Assembly (NCBI GenBank): GCA_039917225.1
Contig: JBDSJV010000035.1
Span: forward strand, 1 to 32,866
Reading direction: 5' to 3'
Source of the DNA: Candidatus Limnocylindrales bacterium
GTDB taxonomy: Bacteria; Chloroflexota; Limnocylindria; Limnocylindrales; CSP1-4
DNA: 32,866 nucleotides
Under the pieces are notes generated by a model, which ran no database searches, was not told the DNA's origin, and saw only the letters and a program-made list of their open reading frames with translations. Positions 11,682 through 20,063 of this stretch are shown here, one piece after another. A program made the translations under genes and the position numbers. The number at the start of each line of letters is the position of its first letter. Position 1 is the stretch's first letter.

Positions 11682-11761
11682 GCCGTCACAACCGGCGTGA
11701 AAGTATCAGATCGGGACTCAGGCCCGGAACCCCGAGGAATAGCAGGATCGATCACGACGGC

Positions 11762-13888: not shown

Positions 13889-13934
13889 AGTTTGCATTTT
13901 GCACGGAAATAACCGTAAATAGCAAGTGCCAACC
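13876..13934. promoter_or_regulatory. AT-rich divergent promoter/operator region between the regulator and the hemerythrin operon
   Basis: This stretch is strikingly AT-rich for the window. A 12-mer is repeated directly with 2 mismatches: CTGTAAATGGCA (13876-13887) and CCGTAAATAGCA (13913-13924). Between the copies is a tandem TTTGCAT/TTTGCAC (13891-13904). TTGCAT (13892-13897), an 18-nt spacer and TAAATA (13916-13921) could form a weak sigma-70-type promoter giving a near-leaderless hemerythrin mRNA. Confidence 0.35.
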
Positions 13935-14420
13935 ATGAGCAGTCAGGAGTGTCACGACAACATGTCGAATCAATCCGATGCGGACGCCGCGACGGCCATC
14001 CGAGCACACCATCGGGAACTGCACGACGAGCTGCGGACCCGCGTGCTCGACGCGGTGGATACGGCGCGCGCCGGCGGGCCAGTCGGCGACGCTCGAGAGT
14101 CGGTCCTCGCCTTTCTTGATGGAGAACTGCTGCCGCACGCCGCGGCGGAGGAGGCCGCGCTCTATCCAGCCGGCGACACAGGGTCGAGTGAACTGCTCGT
14201 TCGAGCGATGCGCGACGAACACCGCAACCTGATCGCTCATGTCGACAGACTGCGGACGGCAAGTGACGGGATCGCCACGGCGACCATCGCCAGCGCGATC
14301 CTCGCCCTGTTCGAGTCGCACCTCTCGAAGGAGAATGACTTGCTCGTTCCCGCGCTCCTCGCCAGGCCCGACGTCTCGCTCGCGGCGTTGCTGGATGGGA
14401 TGCATGAGCTGGTCGGCTGA
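13935..14420 (+). CDS. Hemerythrin HHE cation-binding domain protein
   Basis: His/Glu ligand pattern spread over four helices: 'IRAHHRELHDEL', 'LLPHAAAEEAALYP', 'MRDEHRNLIAHVDRL', 'FESHLSKENDLL'. ATG 13935 was chosen. GTG 13926 and ATG 13962 are alternatives. Confidence 0.8.
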   Translation: MSSQECHDNMSNQSDADAATAIRAHHRELHDELRTRVLDAVDTARAGGPVGDARESVLAFLDGELLPHAAAEEAALYPAGDTGSSELLVRAMRDEHRNLIAHVDRLRTASDGIATATIASAILALFESHLSKENDLLVPALLARPDVSLAALLDGMHELVG

Positions 14421-14436
14421 GGTGGTCGAGGGCGCG

Positions 14437-14661
14437 ATGCGCGCGACGGATCCGGCCGTGACCCAGCTGACGACCTCACTGACGCGTGCGTTGCGTCGCC
14501 TTGGCGATGTCGGCGAACCGACGACAGCGGCCCAGATCGCAGCCCAGGCGTATGGAGCGCTCCGTCGTGAGCATGCACCGGCGGCTGAACGAATCAATCA
14601 GGTGATGCATTACCTGGCCCGCCTCGAAGAGGCTGGGAAGGAAGAGGGAGCGACACGATGA
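14437..14661 (+). CDS. Small hypothetical protein (74-85 aa), no family recognised
   Basis: The ORF is in frame with G/C-biased third codon positions. Its TGA stop overlaps the DUF2249 ATG (ATGA at 14658-14661). Possible starts are ATG 14404 (17-nt overlap with the hemerythrin gene), GTG 14422 and ATG 14437. Sequence: 'MRATDPAVTQLTTSLTRALRRLGDVGEPTTAAQIAAQAYGALRREHAPAAERINQVMHYLARLEEAGKEEG'. Confidence 0.5.
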   Translation: MRATDPAVTQLTTSLTRALRRLGDVGEPTTAAQIAAQAYGALRREHAPAAERINQVMHYLARLEEAGKEEGATR

Positions 14662-14915
14662 CAGACAACCAGATTCTCGACGTGAGGAGCGAGCCGCCGG
14701 TTCGGCGTCACGCCATCATCTTCGAAACGTTCGAGACCCTCGATGCGGGCACCGGCTTTGTGCTGGTCAACGACCATGACCCGAAGCCGCTCTACTACCA
14801 GCTTGCGGCCGAGCAGCCCGGGACGTTCACCTGGGACTACCTCGAGAGTGGGCCTGTCGTGTGGCGCGTGAGGATCGGCCGCGTCGGGACCCCTGCTGCG
14901 ACCGTCGAGGCCTGA
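14658..14915 (+). CDS. DUF2249 domain protein
   Basis: 85 aa. 'LDVRSEPPVRRHAIIFETFETLDAGTGFVLVNDHDPKPLYYQL ... FTWDYLESGPVVWRVRI' matches the DUF2249 consensus as I recall it (R-H-x-x-I-F, 'DHDP', 'GP..W'). Confidence 0.8.
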   Translation: MTDNQILDVRSEPPVRRHAIIFETFETLDAGTGFVLVNDHDPKPLYYQLAAEQPGTFTWDYLESGPVVWRVRIGRVGTPAATVEA

Positions 14916-14918
14916 CCC

Positions 14919-15695
14919 ATGAGCGACGTCGGACCCTCGAGCGGAGCCGAGACAGTGACCGTGGCGGCTACCTGGCCCATCTTCGAAGCGGCCTTGACAG
15001 GCCGCGAACCAGTGGCAGAACGGACGATGTCGTTCCGCTTCACCAAGCCGGACGACTGGACGTATCGGGCCGGCCAGTTCATCGACATCACGTTGCTCAA
15101 CCCGCCCGAGACTGACGCGGAAGGCAACACCCGGGGCTTCTCCATCTCGAGCGCCCCCAGTGAGGACGTAATCACGATCACGACCCGCCTGCGGGACACC
15201 GCGTTCAAGCGCGTCCTCCAGACCATGCCGCTCGGAACCCCGGTCAGGATCGAGGGACCGTTCGGCGACCTTCGGCTGCATCATGCGAACCGGCCGGCGG
15301 TGGTCCTCACGGGTGGGATCGGCGTCACGCCCTTCCGCAGCATCCTCGTGCAGGCGGTCAGGGACGGCGGTCTGCCGTATCGGGTCGTGGTCTTGTACGC
15401 CAACCGTCGACCCGAGGATGCGGCCTTCCTCGACGAGCTCGCCCACCTCGCGCAACAGGACTCGAATCTTACGTTCGTGCCCACGATGTCGGACATGTCA
15501 GAGTCGGGGCGCGCCTGGGATGGGGAGCGTGGCCGCATCGATGGGTCAATGCTCGGTCGCCACCTGGCTGGGGTTGCCAGCGCCATCTACTACCTCACTG
15601 GCCCGCCCGGCATGGTCAGCGGACTGCGTACGATGCTCGTCGACTCGGGCGTCGACGAGGACGACATCCGGACCGAAGAGTTCACTGGTTACTGA
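14919..15695 (+). CDS. Ferredoxin-NADP reductase-like FAD/NAD(P)H oxidoreductase
   Basis: 'YRAGQFIDI', 'RGFSISS' (R-x-[YF]-S FAD motif), 'PVRIEGPFG', 'VVLTGGIGVTPFRSIL' (NAD(P)H G-G-x-G-x-x-P), and an aromatic C-terminus '...EEFTGY'. Confidence 0.85.
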   Translation: MSDVGPSSGAETVTVAATWPIFEAALTGREPVAERTMSFRFTKPDDWTYRAGQFIDITLLNPPETDAEGNTRGFSISSAPSEDVITITTRLRDTAFKRVLQTMPLGTPVRIEGPFGDLRLHHANRPAVVLTGGIGVTPFRSILVQAVRDGGLPYRVVVLYANRRPEDAAFLDELAHLAQQDSNLTFVPTMSDMSESGRAWDGERGRIDGSMLGRHLAGVASAIYYLTGPPGMVSGLRTMLVDSGVDEDDIRTEEFTGY

Positions 15696-15711
15696 AAGAG
15701 CAGGCGAAAAC

Positions 15712-16185
15712 ATGAGACTCGACTACCAACACGAACTTCCCGAGGCATCACGAGCGATGAGCCAGCTGGAAGAAGTCATCGAATCGAGCACCCTCGAACC
15801 GCAGCTGTGTGAGCTGGTCAAGCTTCGTGCCTCGCAACTCAACGGTTGTGCCTACTGCGTAGACATGCACTCCAAGGATGCCGAGGCCATCGGCGAGGTG
15901 GCGCAGCGACTTCACCTCGTCGCCGTGTGGCGGGAGGCACCGGTGTTCAGCGCCAGGGAGCGGGCCGCCCTCGCCTGGACCGAGGCTCTGACGCTCCTGC
16001 CGCAGTCTGGGGCCCCCGACGAAGTCTACGAGGAGGTCGCTCGCCTGTTCGCTCCGGCTGAGCAGGTGGCATTGACACTGGCGATCGTCGCCATCAACGG
16101 CTGGAACCGCTTCGCGGTCGCTTTCCGCCAACCGGTCGGGAACTACGTCTCGCACCGTCATCCGGTGGATGCGTTGGGGGCCTGA
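15712..16185 (+). CDS. Carboxymuconolactone decarboxylase family / AhpD-like alkylhydroperoxidase
   Basis: 'LVKLRASQLNGCAYCVDMHSKDA' carries the AhpD-type C-x-x-C-x-x-x-H motif. 'ERAALAWTEALT' and 'AINGWNR' are typical of the family. ATG 15712 is in frame with the listed ORF 15283..16185, whose upstream part overlaps the FNR-like gene. Confidence 0.85.
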   Translation: MRLDYQHELPEASRAMSQLEEVIESSTLEPQLCELVKLRASQLNGCAYCVDMHSKDAEAIGEVAQRLHLVAVWREAPVFSARERAALAWTEALTLLPQSGAPDEVYEEVARLFAPAEQVALTLAIVAINGWNRFAVAFRQPVGNYVSHRHPVDALGA

Positions 16186-16514: not shown

Positions 16515-17213
16515 TCAGGCGGGATCGTCGCCCACGAAGCGGTAGCCCAACCCTCGCTCCGTCCGGATGTACCGGGGGTCCTCTGGGTTGTCACCGAGCT
16601 TCTCGCGAAGCCGGCGGATGTAGACCCTGATGTAGTCGACCTCGTCGACGTATTCACGGCCCCAGACCTTCGCCAGCAGGGTCCCGTGCTGGAGGATGTA
16701 GCCGGCGTTGCGGACCAGGTGGTAGAGCAGCTTGTACTCGGTTGGTGTCAGCTCAAGACGCTCGCCCCGTAGGCGGGCCTCCTGACGGGCGAAATCGACC
16801 TCGAGGTCGCCGGACCTGAAGGATGGGGCCCGGCTGGCTGGCGCCGGCATGTCGAGCCTGCGCAGAACGGCCTTGACTCGGGCCATGAGCTCAAGATGGT
16901 CGAACGGTTTGGTGACGTAGTCGTCTGCTCCGAGCTCCAGGCCTTTCACCTTGTCCATCGAATCGTCGTGGGCCGTAAGCATCACGACCGGCACGTCCGA
17001 GAATGCCCGGATCTGGCGGAGCACCTCGAAGCCGTCGATGTCGGGCAAGCCGATGTCGAGAAGGACGATGTCGGGACGCTTGTGTTCGATCGAGTCAAGT
17101 CCGGATTCGCCATTGACCGCGCCGATGACATCGATCTCACGCCATTGCAAAGTGAACCCGAGACGGACGGACTCGATGACATCCGGTTCGTCATCGACCA
17201 CCAGGACCCTCAT
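16515..17213 (-). CDS. OmpR/PhoB-family response regulator
   Basis: Receiver domain: 'MRVLVVDDEPD', 'PDIVLLDIGLPDIDGF', 'VVMLTAHD', 'GADDYVTKPF'. Winged-helix output: 'LTPTEYKLLYHLVRNAG', 'IRVYIRRLREKL', 'RGLGYRF'. Its start overlaps the kinase stop by 4 nt. Confidence 0.93.
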   Translation of the reverse strand: MRVLVVDDEPDVIESVRLGFTLQWREIDVIGAVNGESGLDSIEHKRPDIVLLDIGLPDIDGFEVLRQIRAFSDVPVVMLTAHDDSMDKVKGLELGADDYVTKPFDHLELMARVKAVLRRLDMPAPASRAPSFRSGDLEVDFARQEARLRGERLELTPTEYKLLYHLVRNAGYILQHGTLLAKVWGREYVDEVDYIRVYIRRLREKLGDNPEDPRYIRTERGLGYRFVGDDPA

Positions 17214-18241
17214 TCCTTAGGAGCCTCCTCGGGTCCGGCCGACGGAACGACGATGCTGAACGTACTGCCGCGACCGAGTCGGCTCCGTACGTCGATTCGG
17301 CCCTCATGCGCCTCAACGATCAGGAGGGAGATCGGAAGTCCCAAGCCGATCCCCGCGCTGGCCTCGGAATGGTCACGTTGCGCCACAAAGAAGCGTTCAA
17401 ACAGTCGGGCCTTGTCCGTCACCTTGATGCCGTGGCCCTTGTCACTGACGGTCCATGCGACGTCTGGCCCGACCCCTCGGACAGAGACCTTGATCGGAGC
17501 CCCTTGAGGTGAGTACTTCTCGGCATTGGAGAGGAGATTCACGAGAGCCTGTTCGAGCCGCCGATAGTCGCCGAAAACTGAGACCGGCCGGCTTGGTACC
17601 TCGAGCACGATGGTCTGTCCGCGTGATGCAGCGAGCAATGCAACGGATGAGATCGCCGACTCGGCGAGCTCAGTTGCATCGAACCTACGGAGCTGGAGTT
17701 GGACGCGACCGGCACGAAAGCGAGCAAGATCAAGAATGTCGCCAACCAGGCGCTGCATCCTGGTCGTATTGCGGTCGATTGTCTCCAGGAGTGTCTGGTG
17801 TTGGTCGGCGCTCGGCTCGATCGAGGGGTCGAGCAACAGGCCGATGCTCGTCCGCACCGCGGTCAGCGGTGTCCTCAGTTCGTGGGCGATCGTGGACAGG
17901 ATGTCGGTCCGCATGTGCTCGATCTCAGCGAGCATCTCGACATGCTTCGGCCGGCCGGCAATGGAGACCCCGAGTAGCCGCTCACCGAGCGGAGTCGGGA
18001 AGTAGTCACCGGAACGTTTCGCTCCTCGTACTACCCGCGCCAGACCGAGCCCGGAAAGCTCATCGAGCAGAGCCTCTGCGGCCCGTTCGTCGATTGCCGC
18101 ATCGGCCGCCGCGAATCGAATCGTCAGGTTCGAGGGTGTCACGTGGTCGTGAATGAGCGCCAGCGCAGCAACGGCGAGCGGTGAGGGTTGCGGGTTGGTG
18201 GCCATCGAGGAAACGAGCATACGCTCGCCCACGGCACCCAC
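17210..18241 (-). CDS. Sensor histidine kinase (HisKA + HATPase_c) with no predicted TM segment
   Basis: H-box 'LSTIAHELRTPLTAV', N-box 'LVNLLSNAEKYSP', G1 'VSDKGHGI', G2 'GIGLGLPIS'. The N-terminal ~110 aa are soluble with no hydrophobic helix. Possible starts: GTG 18241, ATG 18220 or ATG 18205. Confidence 0.9.
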   Translation of the reverse strand: MGAVGERMLVSSMATNPQPSPLAVAALALIHDHVTPSNLTIRFAAADAAIDERAAEALLDELSGLGLARVVRGAKRSGDYFPTPLGERLLGVSIAGRPKHVEMLAEIEHMRTDILSTIAHELRTPLTAVRTSIGLLLDPSIEPSADQHQTLLETIDRNTTRMQRLVGDILDLARFRAGRVQLQLRRFDATELAESAISSVALLAASRGQTIVLEVPSRPVSVFGDYRRLEQALVNLLSNAEKYSPQGAPIKVSVRGVGPDVAWTVSDKGHGIKVTDKARLFERFFVAQRDHSEASAGIGLGLPISLLIVEAHEGRIDVRSRLGRGSTFSIVVPSAGPEEAPKE

Positions 18242-18256
18242 TTCAGCCGGACCGGC

Positions 18257-18508
18257 TCAGCGTCTGCCAGCTCGCACGAGGTGGTGGCCAGTGACTACGA
18301 TCGGGATGGCGATGGGATCGGCGACATCGAGGCAGTGGTGCACGCGCGACTCATCGATGGGCGCCTGGTCGTACGAGCAGATACACGGACCGTTGGCGGC
18401 ACAGCCGGCGCAGCAGAACGGCAGCCCGACGTGGAACGTAGCTGAGCCGACGATCTCGAGCTCGCACGTGACGCAACTGAATGGTTTGATGGTGCTCAAG
18501 CGCCGCAT
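18257..18508 (-). CDS. Small Cys/His-rich putative metal-binding protein (TRASH/YHS-like or SmtA-type metallothionein-like zinc-ribbon)
   Basis: 83 aa with G/C-biased third codon positions. 'FSCVTCELEIVGSATFHVGLPFCCAGCAANGPCICS' gives C-x2-C-x16-C-C-x2-C-x5-C-x-C. This is close to the TRASH C-x2-C-x19-22-C-x3-C pattern and to the SmtA 'yyCSeaCAdGH' segment. It also has 'HHC' and 'GHH'. The gene ends 15 nt upstream of the kinase GTG. Confidence 0.5.
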   Translation of the reverse strand: MRRLSTIKPFSCVTCELEIVGSATFHVGLPFCCAGCAANGPCICSYDQAPIDESRVHHCLDVADPIAIPIVVTGHHLVRAGRR

Positions 18509-18785
18509 GTCATCCTCGCTGAATGGGGCGCGCTTCGGCTGTACGCCGTGAAGGGTGCGCCCCGGTGATGGCGGTAAGCCACCGCGCCTGAAGCTAGGGT
18601 CGCGGGTTGAAGACCCGTGGAAACCCGGGTGAATATGGCGTGAATGAGGTGGCCGGTCACGTTTTCATATGGCGTTCACGCTCATCCATTCGCTTGTTCG
18701 CTGAGAGCCTTCAATCTCCCGATGACGTGCCCGCTCGCCTTCGCACACCGTGTCGGTGCGCCTCGTCATAGACCGGAGACCACCG

Positions 18786-20063
18786 ATGCTGCAGACCCTT
18801 GAGATGCCCGCCCAGACGCGAGGCGCCAACCCGCTGGCGGCGGCTCTGGCCCAGTTTGATCAGACCGCCGACCACCTTCAGCTCGAACCCGGGATCCGCG
18901 CGATCCTCCGGGCGCCGAAGCGGGAGTGGACGGTCAATTTCCCGGTCATGCTCGACGACGGCACGGTGAAGGTCTTCACCGGGTATCGCGTGCAGCACAA
19001 CGTATCTCGCGGGCCGGCGAAGGGCGGCTTGCGCTATCACGAGACGGCGGACCTTGATGACGTCCGCGCCCTGGCGATGTGGATGACCTGGAAGTGCGCC
19101 CTCGTTGACGTTCCGTTCGGAGGCGCCAAGGGCGGAGTGACGCTGGATCCACGAATGTTCAGTACCAGGGAGCTCGAGGCCGTGACGCGGCGGTTCGCAA
19201 CAGAGCTTGAAGGGATCATTGGACCGGACTCGGACATCCCCGCGCCCGACGTCGGGACGAACGCACAGACGATGGCCTGGATCATGGATACGGTGTCGAT
19301 GCACCGAGGCTACTCGGTCCAGGGCGTCGTGACGGGCAAGCCTATCTCGATCGGCGGTTCGCACGGCAGGGCAGATGCGACGGGCCAGGGCGTCGTCTAC
19401 ACCATCGCCGATGCAGCGCGCCGGGGCGGCTTCACGATTGAAGGAGCACAGGTCGCCGTCCAGGGATTCGGCAACGTAGGTGAAGCGACGGCCCGGTTGA
19501 TGCACAAGGTGGGAGCACGCGTAGTTGCGATCACTGATGTCGGTGGCGGCGTGACGAACCCGGATGGCCTCGACGTGCCGCTGTTGACGCGGTACCTGCA
19601 GGAGCACGGCACGATTGCCGGCGCACCCGGCACAACGCCGATCTCGAACGACGAGCTCTTTGCGTTGGACGTTGACATCCTCGTCCTGGCTGCATTGGAA
19701 GGCCAGATCACGAAGGCGAATGCCAGCACGGTCCGTGCTCGGATCCTGGCCGAAGCGGCGAATGGCCCGACCACGCCTGATGCCGATCCGATCCTCCGCC
19801 AAAACGGAGTCGTCGTGATCCCCGACATCCTGTGCAACGCCGGAGGAGTGATCGTCAGCTACTTCGAGTGGGCCCAGAACCGGGCCGCGCTGGCATGGAC
19901 CCTTGACGAAGTCAACGAGCGTCTCCGACGCCAGATCCTCGTCGCTGCGGAGGCCGTCTGGCAACGAGCGGCGGCCGATAACGTCAGCCCACGGCTCGCG
20001 GCCAACGCGATTGCGGTCGAGCGGGTGGCCTTGGCGACCCAGCTGCGAGGCCTTTATCCCTGA
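18786..20063 (+). CDS. gdhA: Glutamate dehydrogenase (Glu/Leu/Phe/Val dehydrogenase family)
   Basis: 'KGGLRYHETADLDDVRALAMWMTWKCALVDVPFGGAKGGV' is the catalytic Lys region. 'DIPAPDVGT' is present. 'VAVQGFGNVGEATA' is the Rossmann GxGxxG. ATG 18786 is residue 13 of the listed ORF. Confidence 0.93.
   Translation: MLQTLEMPAQTRGANPLAAALAQFDQTADHLQLEPGIRAILRAPKREWTVNFPVMLDDGTVKVFTGYRVQHNVSRGPAKGGLRYHETADLDDVRALAMWMTWKCALVDVPFGGAKGGVTLDPRMFSTRELEAVTRRFATELEGIIGPDSDIPAPDVGTNAQTMAWIMDTVSMHRGYSVQGVVTGKPISIGGSHGRADATGQGVVYTIADAARRGGFTIEGAQVAVQGFGNVGEATARLMHKVGARVVAITDVGGGVTNPDGLDVPLLTRYLQEHGTIAGAPGTTPISNDELFALDVDILVLAALEGQITKANASTVRARILAEAANGPTTPDADPILRQNGVVVIPDILCNAGGVIVSYFEWAQNRAALAWTLDEVNERLRRQILVAAEAVWQRAAADNVSPRLAANAIAVERVALATQLRGLYP

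Follow-up and report, generated by a model that had tools for sequence, protein, structure and literature searches.

The question raised by a three-gene operon of an uncultured Chloroflexota bacterium is how a soluble histidine kinase receives its signal, and what part is played by a small cysteine-rich protein encoded directly ahead of it. The operon lies on a contig of 32,866 nucleotides (nt) from a Candidatus Limnocylindrales bacterium (JBDSJV010000035.1, assembly GCA_039917225.1), analysed over its whole length and referred to here as the window; like all sequences used in this work it comes from a metagenome-assembled genome (MAG), in this case one that is 58% complete. An original prediction made from the window sequence proposed that the kinase is cytoplasmic and that the small protein, labelled TRASH/metallothionein-like, is its detachable metal- or redox-sensing subunit. 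Comparative analysis shows a one-way dependence: the small gene is hardly ever seen apart from this two-component system, but many copies of the system lack the small gene. The reading tentatively preferred here, with somewhat less than even confidence, is that the small protein is under the control of the regulator, carries metal and acts back on the kinase as an accessory; on this reading it would be a lineage-specific accessory and not an obligate sensor subunit.

The three-gene layout on the minus strand was confirmed, including an 83-residue first product with eight cysteine and five histidine residues. The features of the operon are as follows:

18257–18508, minus strand: small cysteine-rich protein gene, the first gene of the operon, 83 amino acids (aa), assigned from the open reading frame (ORF), residue counts and homologues
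18368–18475, minus strand: conserved seven-cysteine core of the small protein (residues 12–47), CxxC-x16-CCxxC-x5-CxC-SYD
17210–18241, minus strand: soluble histidine kinase gene, 343 aa, with HisKA and HATPase_c domains
17966–18184, minus strand: N-terminal winged-helix domain of the kinase (residues ~20–92), assigned from an AlphaFold2 (AF2) model, weak profile matches and conservation
16515–17213, minus strand: OmpR/PhoB-family response regulator gene, 232 aa, with Response_reg and Trans_reg_C domains

The small gene has a GAGGA Shine-Dalgarno sequence 4 nt 5′ of its ATG start codon. The public call begins at a TTG three codons inside and gives a product of 80 aa (P0001); the ATG is favoured because the residues MRRLST are kept in homologues. 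A gap of 15 nt separates the TGA stop from the GTG start of the kinase at 18241, which is in the same reading frame and has alternative ATG starts 7 and 12 codons inside the GTG; the kinase stop and the regulator ATG overlap by 4 nt (ATGA). At two related loci, L041 and L042, the junction between the small gene and the kinase gene is itself a 4-nt overlap. A scan of the whole window against Rfam returned zero RNA families, arguing against a riboswitch or leader 5′ of the small gene.

The seven-cysteine protein family

In the window protein the cysteines occupy positions 12, 15, 32, 33, 36, 42, 44 and 59 and the histidines positions 26, 57, 58, 75 and 76. A scan of one genome per species, made in the direction from small gene to kinase, gave 50 loci encoding the small protein, and the seven-cysteine motif was found in 47 of them with identical spacing in each. 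Alignment shows C12, C15, C32, C33, C36, C42 and C44 to be invariant (C-x2-C-x16-C-C-x2-C-x5-C-x-C) and flanked by strongly conserved residues (PF.C..C, FHVGLPFCCAGC and GGPC.CSYD), a combination that indicates a folded interaction module. Position 26 is usually histidine, with Y, R, L, D or Q in some members. Of the motifs singled out in the original prediction, GHH shows no conservation, while HHC, like the R-V-R-H-C-L-D motif that carries the eighth cysteine, is kept by no more than about half of the relatives in the alignment.

A word-indexed search returned 71 close homologues, nearly all of them metagenomic and, where labelled, assigned to Chloroflexota or Limnocylindrales, and a profile of the 40-residue core matched 409 cluster representatives (clusters at 50% identity) among 1.8 billion. 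The small protein belongs to a genuine, unannotated Cys-module family, whose TRASH/metallothionein-like label reflects a resemblance only. Searches with Pfam models, including YHS (PF04945) and Metallothio_Pro (PF02069), gave no match at E ≤ 10 for 37 members (the window protein and 36 relatives), and NCBIfam gave no relevant match on the same set. The ligand spacing is C-x2-C-x16-C-x3-C, with three further invariant cysteines, and not the C-x2-C-x19-22-C-x3-C that Ettema and colleagues reportedly gave for YHS/TRASH modules in 2003.

What is left is a resemblance to SmtA/BmtA and TRASH/YHS proteins: a small cysteine-rich module with an N-terminal CxxC knuckle, a predicted beta-hairpin followed by a helix starting at aromatic-C-x3-C, and an extra C-terminal CxC. 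The one link to metallothioneins is indirect and comes from the fusion protein P0182, which carries a four-cysteine module in tandem with a seven-cysteine module, the first of which scores 25 bits (E = 2.2e-5) on Metallothio_Pro, below the gathering cut-off of 33 bits. The family differs in its exactly seven invariant cysteines and very conserved non-cysteine residues, and its genomic partners are a kinase-regulator pair, the glutamate dehydrogenase gene (gdh) and GreA-like genes instead of metal transporters or SmtB. A profile search of the PDB with the small protein returned only weak LIM (E = 0.047) and ATP7A matches, which were set aside as generic CxxC/treble-clef resemblance, and a literature search on the seven-cysteine motif and on gdh-linked two-component systems in this lineage found nothing relevant.

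Modelled alone, the small protein reaches an AF2 predicted local distance difference test (pLDDT) score of 52.7, and this model was left out of the fold search. A read-through model, in which the small gene and the kinase form one chain (table 4, TGA = W) with a block-structured, largely unpaired alignment, has well-modelled domains and returned kinase cores only in the fold search. When a cleaner core alignment was used, residues 11–40 of this model reached a pLDDT of ~89 as a beta-hairpin and a short helix starting at FCCAGC, which would correspond to a treble-clef or zinc-ribbon pattern and agrees with the conserved, zinc-ribbon-like module first predicted. Two other block alignments (A3 and A4) were dropped, as MAFFT set kinase residues under the Cys core. 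The core probably holds two metal ions, and its seven invariant thiolates would fit either two tetrahedral sites with one bridging cysteine or a Zn(Cys)4 site plus a three-cysteine site.

The soluble kinase and its linkage to the small gene

The kinase contains HisKA (residues 111–178; PF00512, 65.5 bits) and HATPase_c (residues 224–334; PF02518, 81 bits) domains with the H-box IAHELRTPL, and a fold search with the read-through AF2 model matches the catalytic cores of HK853, WalK and CusS. Over 19-residue windows its Kyte-Doolittle score peaks at 1.43, too low for a transmembrane (TM) helix, Pfam finds no PAS or GAF domain, and cysteine is absent from both the kinase and the regulator. The membrane anchor and periplasmic sensor loop typical of CusS/CopS-type sensors are therefore not present in this kinase, and its predicted cytoplasmic location is supported. 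The accompanying view that the kinase is without a sensor of its own is contradicted by its N-terminal domain, which AF2 models as three helices and a beta-hairpin (pLDDT 89–96) ahead of a standard DHp and catalytic core. The profile matches of this domain are weak and all of winged-helix type (Zur/Fur DNA-binding domain, MarR_2, HTH_45 and Rrf2), and the domain is kept in every kinase orthologue, whether the small gene is present or not; the kinase is therefore more than a bare catalytic core in need of a sensor subunit.

The regulator is a canonical combination of Response_reg (PF00072, 102.6 bits) and Trans_reg_C (PF00486, 88.3 bits). Both proteins score below every cut-off of the NCBIfam equivalogs for PhoR/PhoB, MtrAB, WalRK and heavy-metal pairs, the best kinase scores being PnpS (183.7 against a cut-off of 400) and PhoR (180.2 against 334) and the best regulator scores MtrA (204.8 against 300) and the heavy-metal regulator (167.9 against 279). 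At the majority of the 50 loci, the regulator is 78–96% identical, compared with 49–87% for the kinase core and 33–81% for the kinase N-domain.

The order small gene, kinase, regulator on one strand is found at 41 of the 50 loci, a recurrence that far exceeds chance in independent species genomes; the kinase pair is divergent from the small gene at three loci and the small gene stands alone at a few. The reverse direction, from kinase to small gene, was followed in 401 genomes of the class, with up to 18 small-gene candidates scored per genome; 52 of these genomes have a kinase orthologue and at least 34 have the Cys core. In the family of the window (f1) all 20 kinase-positive genomes have the small gene, and the small gene and kinase are jointly missing in 22 of 24 same-genus genomes. 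In the sister family f4 the small gene was found in at least 7 of 30 kinase-positive genomes, leaving 23 without a scored small gene. The strong linkage that was predicted thus holds from small gene to kinase, and throughout the window's family, but fails from kinase to small gene in f4, where the small ORF is absent from many otherwise syntenic pairs, an outcome that the original prediction had itself listed as refuting and that is thus partly realised.

Twenty kinase loci without a small-gene match were fetched, and these contain no seven-cysteine ORF, although the regulator and the N-domain of the kinase are both kept. At L086 (G062:C11) lies the kinase closest to that of the window (81% identical), intact like its regulator and accompanied by a truncated small gene at 2217–2429, a remnant that retains GCAAGAPCNCSYDQE...RVRHC and has lost the N-terminal CxxC...FCC half.

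These results bear most directly on a strict version of the subunit proposal, in which a kinase without any sensor of its own depends on the Cys-rich protein as an obligate and detachable sensor of metal. Such an arrangement would account for the tight linkage and gene order and for a kinase with no TM segment, PAS domain, GAF domain or cysteine, but it is very unlikely in view of the conserved winged-helix domain, the many f4 genomes that keep this domain, gdh and the operator with no scored small gene, and the truncated small gene beside the closest kinase. Of the proposed detachable metal or redox subunit, the linkage and the soluble kinase stand, whereas obligate, strict metal sensing is not supported.

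The distribution of the kinase in the window's lineage is a separate matter. Its closest orthologues (69–81% identical; genomes G062, G214, G165 and G341) belong to a different family, f4, and orthologues in its own family are ~50–65% identical. The kinase is missing in 23 of 24 genomes of the same-genus draw and in all 12 same-genus genomes of the class draw. Either the contig (C35) was mis-binned into the MAG or the region was horizontally transferred.

The upstream region and glutamate dehydrogenase

Between the operon and a divergent neighbouring gene lies a second conserved part of the locus:

18619–18700, no strand assigned: putative palindromic operator with half-sites phased at 11 base pairs (bp), between the operon and gdh, from alignment with 44 related upstream regions
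18750–20063, plus strand: glutamate dehydrogenase gene (gdh), divergent neighbour sharing the operator, with ELFV_dehydrog_N and ELFV_dehydrog domains

Small-gene upstream regions contain GTTCAY half-sites at exact 11-bp spacing, in two to three copies followed by GTTCCC, with a mirror-image arm of RTGAAC repeats ~20 nt farther upstream. On the operon strand the window version reads GTGAAC-N5-ATGAAA ... ATTCAC-N5-ATTCAC-N5-GTTTCC and takes in the ATATGGCGT boxes. The phased pair occurs in 34 of 45 small-gene upstream regions as opposed to 0.7% of control windows from the same loci, and within the 32.9 kb of the window it is found at the operator only. The operator also precedes the small gene at L014 and L015, where this gene lies ~12 kb from an operon of GreA-like, kinase and regulator genes. 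The exact pattern is almost locus-specific, with 10 matches in five genomes of 3.3–3.6 Mb and 0 for the reversed control, and a regulon scan with it recovered nearly only its own locus and gave no functional hint beyond gdh.

Conservation of the operator is limited to the half-sites, the spacers being neither conserved nor complementary, which favours protein binding; an RNA hairpin formed by the inverted repeat was considered and ruled out on these grounds. The PHO box bound by Streptomyces PhoP consists of 11-nt direct repeat units (GTTCACC), in OmpR/PhoB-type binding (PMC2691820). Given this likeness of the 11-nt GTTCA repeats, the regulator probably autoregulates the operon, with the small gene as its first product. 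The comparison with Streptomyces PhoR-PhoP (PMC2691820) extends to the OmpR-family regulator, the two to four phased repeats of GTTCA type and a link to nitrogen genes. It does not extend to the kinase, which here has a winged-helix domain and no membrane or PAS part, nor to pst/phoU genes, which are not linked; in addition, the present operator is palindromic and almost locus-specific, and scores lie far below the PhoR/PhoB equivalog cut-offs.

Further copies of the repeats were seen in other settings. With a semi-strict pattern, the phased pair was found in 11 of the 20 kinase loci that are without the small gene. Family f4 also contains a paralogous, gdh-linked kinase-regulator set (L087, L088, L090, L092, L094, L097, L100, L101, L103 and L104) whose regulators are only 55–60% identical to the window regulator; none of these 10 loci has a Cys-module gene, seven have the phased pair directly 5′ of the kinase, and both kinase-regulator types co-occur in some genomes (G150, G263 and G341). 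At L081 (G043:C1) two more exact operator pairs, at 11715 and 12524, flank a gene for a 240-aa membrane protein and adjoin a cluster encoding two small membrane proteins, a cupredoxin-like protein and a Rieske-type ferredoxin, making these genes possible extra regulon members in G043.

The glutamate dehydrogenase gene adjoins the small gene at 35 of the 50 loci, mostly in divergent orientation, and adjoins the kinase-regulator pair at 15 of the 20 loci without the small gene, the palindromic operator of the intergenic region having one arm toward each gene. This constancy with or without the small gene defines the core module as gdh, operator, kinase and regulator, with the small gene and, at 15 loci, a GreA-like gene as optional inserts between operator and kinase. 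The locus is accordingly one copy of a Limnocylindria (Chloroflexota) module, and the window copy has the small gene and no GreA-like gene. Since gdh is the constant neighbour, nitrogen or carbon metabolism is the suggested physiological context, and the likely regulatory target is gdh and not metal-trafficking genes.

The prominence of gdh also allows for a small protein that binds and modulates glutamate dehydrogenase (GDH) itself, for example in a redox- or Zn-dependent manner, and is merely co-regulated with it. Consistent with such a role, gdh is the most constant neighbour, and at L026 and L036 the small gene lies 33–135 nt 3′ of gdh on the same strand, with the kinase pair divergent. 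This explanation is nevertheless given very little weight, as gdh is absent within 5 kb of the small gene at 15 of the 50 loci, the Cys-module genes of Dehalococcoidia described below are not beside gdh, and a mirror-tree comparison shows no specific co-variation of the small protein with GDH.

The same neighbourhood also bears on a possible metal-buffering role. SmtA, and CopM in the cyanobacterial copMRS operon, are analogues of a small protein that would act here as a mini-metallothionein, induced by the two-component system and sequestering Zn or Cu with no part in signalling. The FC[C/S]xxC motif and terminal CxC shared with SmtA-like proteins, the paralogous module of P0182 and the position of the small gene first behind the regulator's operator are what such a protein might show. 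Its probability is judged to be low, because the family has no Metallothio_Pro or YHS match, only seven conserved cysteines in rigid spacing among conserved non-cysteine residues would be unusual for a metal sponge, the exact operator pattern hardly occurs outside this locus, and the conserved neighbour is gdh, with no conserved metal transporter or chaperone near the small-gene loci.

On the other side of the operon, a plus-strand run at 13926–16185 converges on the 3′ end of the regulator gene and encodes hemerythrin-like, DUF2249, FNR-like NAD/FAD oxidoreductase and CMD/AhpD-family proteins, the first two named by eye and the last two by Pfam. Parts of this run recur near the module at L010, L011, L013 and L052 and it is not conserved overall.

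Module fusions and the proposed role of the small protein

Relatives of the small protein point to further partners. In at least seven representative clusters (P0161, P0172, P0184, P0188, P0194, P0198 and P0204) the Cys module is part of a larger protein with a GreA_GreB C-terminal domain (PF01272), the fusions scoring 30.7–64.8 bits, above the cut-off. A separate GreA-like (Rnk-like) gene of ~130 aa, such as L012:5245–5631 (59.9 bits), adjoins the small gene at 15 of the 50 loci, in many relatives between small gene and kinase and often with its start overlapping the small-gene stop. The window operon has no GreA-like gene, L017:1208–1309 holds a 34-aa remnant of one, and this suggests a recent loss in the window's clade.

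These associations raise the alternative that the Cys module and the GreA-like (Rnk-type) factor act together at RNA polymerase, to which they would bind as a pair induced by the regulator, and that the kinase and regulator do no more than set the expression of this pair. With its GreA-like gene lost, the window would have a small protein that acts alone or with an unlinked factor. The fusions, the adjacent and overlapping genes and the position of the small gene behind the regulator's operator, like a target gene, are in keeping with this. Known factors of comparable make-up are Gre and the zinc-finger-bearing secondary-channel factors DksA/TraR, but relative to DksA the order of the parts is reversed, the module has seven cysteines instead of four and RNA polymerase binding would be putative here. 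The small protein is still conserved at the 35 loci, including the window, that are without a nearby GreA-like gene, Gre matches in the window's incomplete genome are only weak, and a second class of fusions does not fit. The explanation is thus regarded as rather unlikely, although better placed than metal buffering.

The second class consists of proteins of ~450 aa in Dehalococcoidia, including Candidatus Lucifugimonas marina (NZ_CP046146.1, L107:2729–6509; loci L106–L115), in which one or two Cys modules are joined through a middle domain to a PTPS/QueD-like domain that bears a His triad at the C-terminal end. At 10 of 16 loci the gene for the PTPS-like fusion lies 200–600 nt 3′ of another pair of kinase and OmpR-type regulator. 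The kinase of this pair is again soluble and has only a long, acidic, low-complexity N-terminus of EP repeats with no recognisable sensor domain, and the fusion genes have their own 11-bp-phased TGTTTAC/TGTTAC repeats (TGTTTAC-N4-TGTTAC) and a TTGAC box upstream. Coupling of the Cys module to a soluble kinase has thus arisen at least twice, each time behind regulator-type repeats.

A direct fusion of the Cys module to a kinase was sought as well. The 447-aa frame joining the small gene and kinase at L016 (4995–6335) is a frameshift artefact, as the near-identical L020 has a stop and a different frame. The regulator gene of L016 (6335–7020) is also split into two frames, indicating assembly indels and not a natural fusion.

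The preferred reading, a regulator-controlled accessory of the kinase, can be set out as a circuit. The phosphorylated regulator would bind the tandem 11-bp GTTCAY repeats in both operator arms and control gdh as well as its own operon. The small protein would be made under this control and translated beside the kinase, its seven-cysteine core folding as a zinc-ribbon or treble-clef knuckle with probably two metal ions. It would most likely bind the kinase and shift the kinase/phosphatase balance according to the state of the metal-thiolate cluster (loaded, oxidised or demetallated), so that the circuit would gain a feedback loop as well as an input for redox state or metal, while the primary input, probably nitrogen or carbon status, would be sensed by the winged-helix domain of the kinase.

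This reading draws on the gene order and tight spacing (15 nt, or the overlaps of L041 and L042), on the recurrence of that order, and on the complete co-presence in f1 with joint absence in most same-genus genomes. It also draws on the phased repeats ahead of most small genes, including the unlinked L014 and L015, which match the repeat logic of the Streptomyces PHO box (PMC2691820), on the independent linkage of Cys module and soluble kinase, behind its own repeats, in Dehalococcoidia, and on the invariant cysteines with their conserved surroundings.

Several observations weigh against it. The module of kinase, regulator and gdh occurs without the small gene in many genomes, and the closest relative has only the remnant at L086. 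At L026 and L036 the small gene follows gdh and not the kinase pair. The mirror-tree correlation of the small protein is the same (r ~0.36) with either part of the kinase, N-domain or core, as with the regulator or GDH, and together with partial correlations it gives no partner specificity. No genuine fusion of Cys module and kinase was found among fusions that join the module only to GreA-like and PTPS-like domains. The link between small protein and kinase is seen as genomic linkage, any contact being putative, and metal binding is predicted from sequence.

Accessory proteins that are both target and modulator of a two-component system include ZraP with ZraSR and CpxP with CpxAR, and stand-alone sensors or modulators of kinases include H-NOX with HnoK and Sda/KipI with KinA. 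In general terms these share with the small protein an origin with or beside the pair and behind the regulator's sites, the kinase of H-NOX systems is likewise soluble, and the small protein is similarly dispensable in some lineages. None of them is related to it in sequence or fold, and it differs from ZraP and CpxP in its cytoplasmic compartment.

A broader proposal, doubtful yet somewhat better placed than the RNA polymerase explanation, is that the seven-cysteine module is a portable cytoplasmic input domain, a metal-thiolate or iron-sulfur (Fe-S) switch, for soluble kinases without a classical sensor. It would have been recruited at least twice in Chloroflexota, by the winged-helix kinase beside gdh in Limnocylindria and by the acidic-tailed kinase in Dehalococcoidia, alone or with GreA-like or PTPS-like cargo, and here it would couple redox or metal state to glutamate dehydrogenase expression.

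The Cys-module family and the gdh-linked soluble two-component system in uncultured Chloroflexota are undescribed. Soil, freshwater and the ocean harbour abundant Limnocylindria and SAR202-type Dehalococcoidia, most of them uncultured, and to our knowledge almost nothing is known of how they regulate central nitrogen metabolism. The locus offers a complete candidate circuit for this purpose, running from a soluble kinase with a winged-helix domain through a very conserved OmpR regulator and a defined operator to its likely target, gdh, and an unannotated family of ~400 clusters is seen to travel with two-component systems, with the kinase, the GreA-like factor and the PTPS-like domain as candidate partners of its Cys module. 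If the module is not a switch, there remains the annotation of a conserved regulon by its operator and its link to gdh; if it is a redox or metal switch on the kinase, it would represent a new kind of cytoplasmic accessory sensor.

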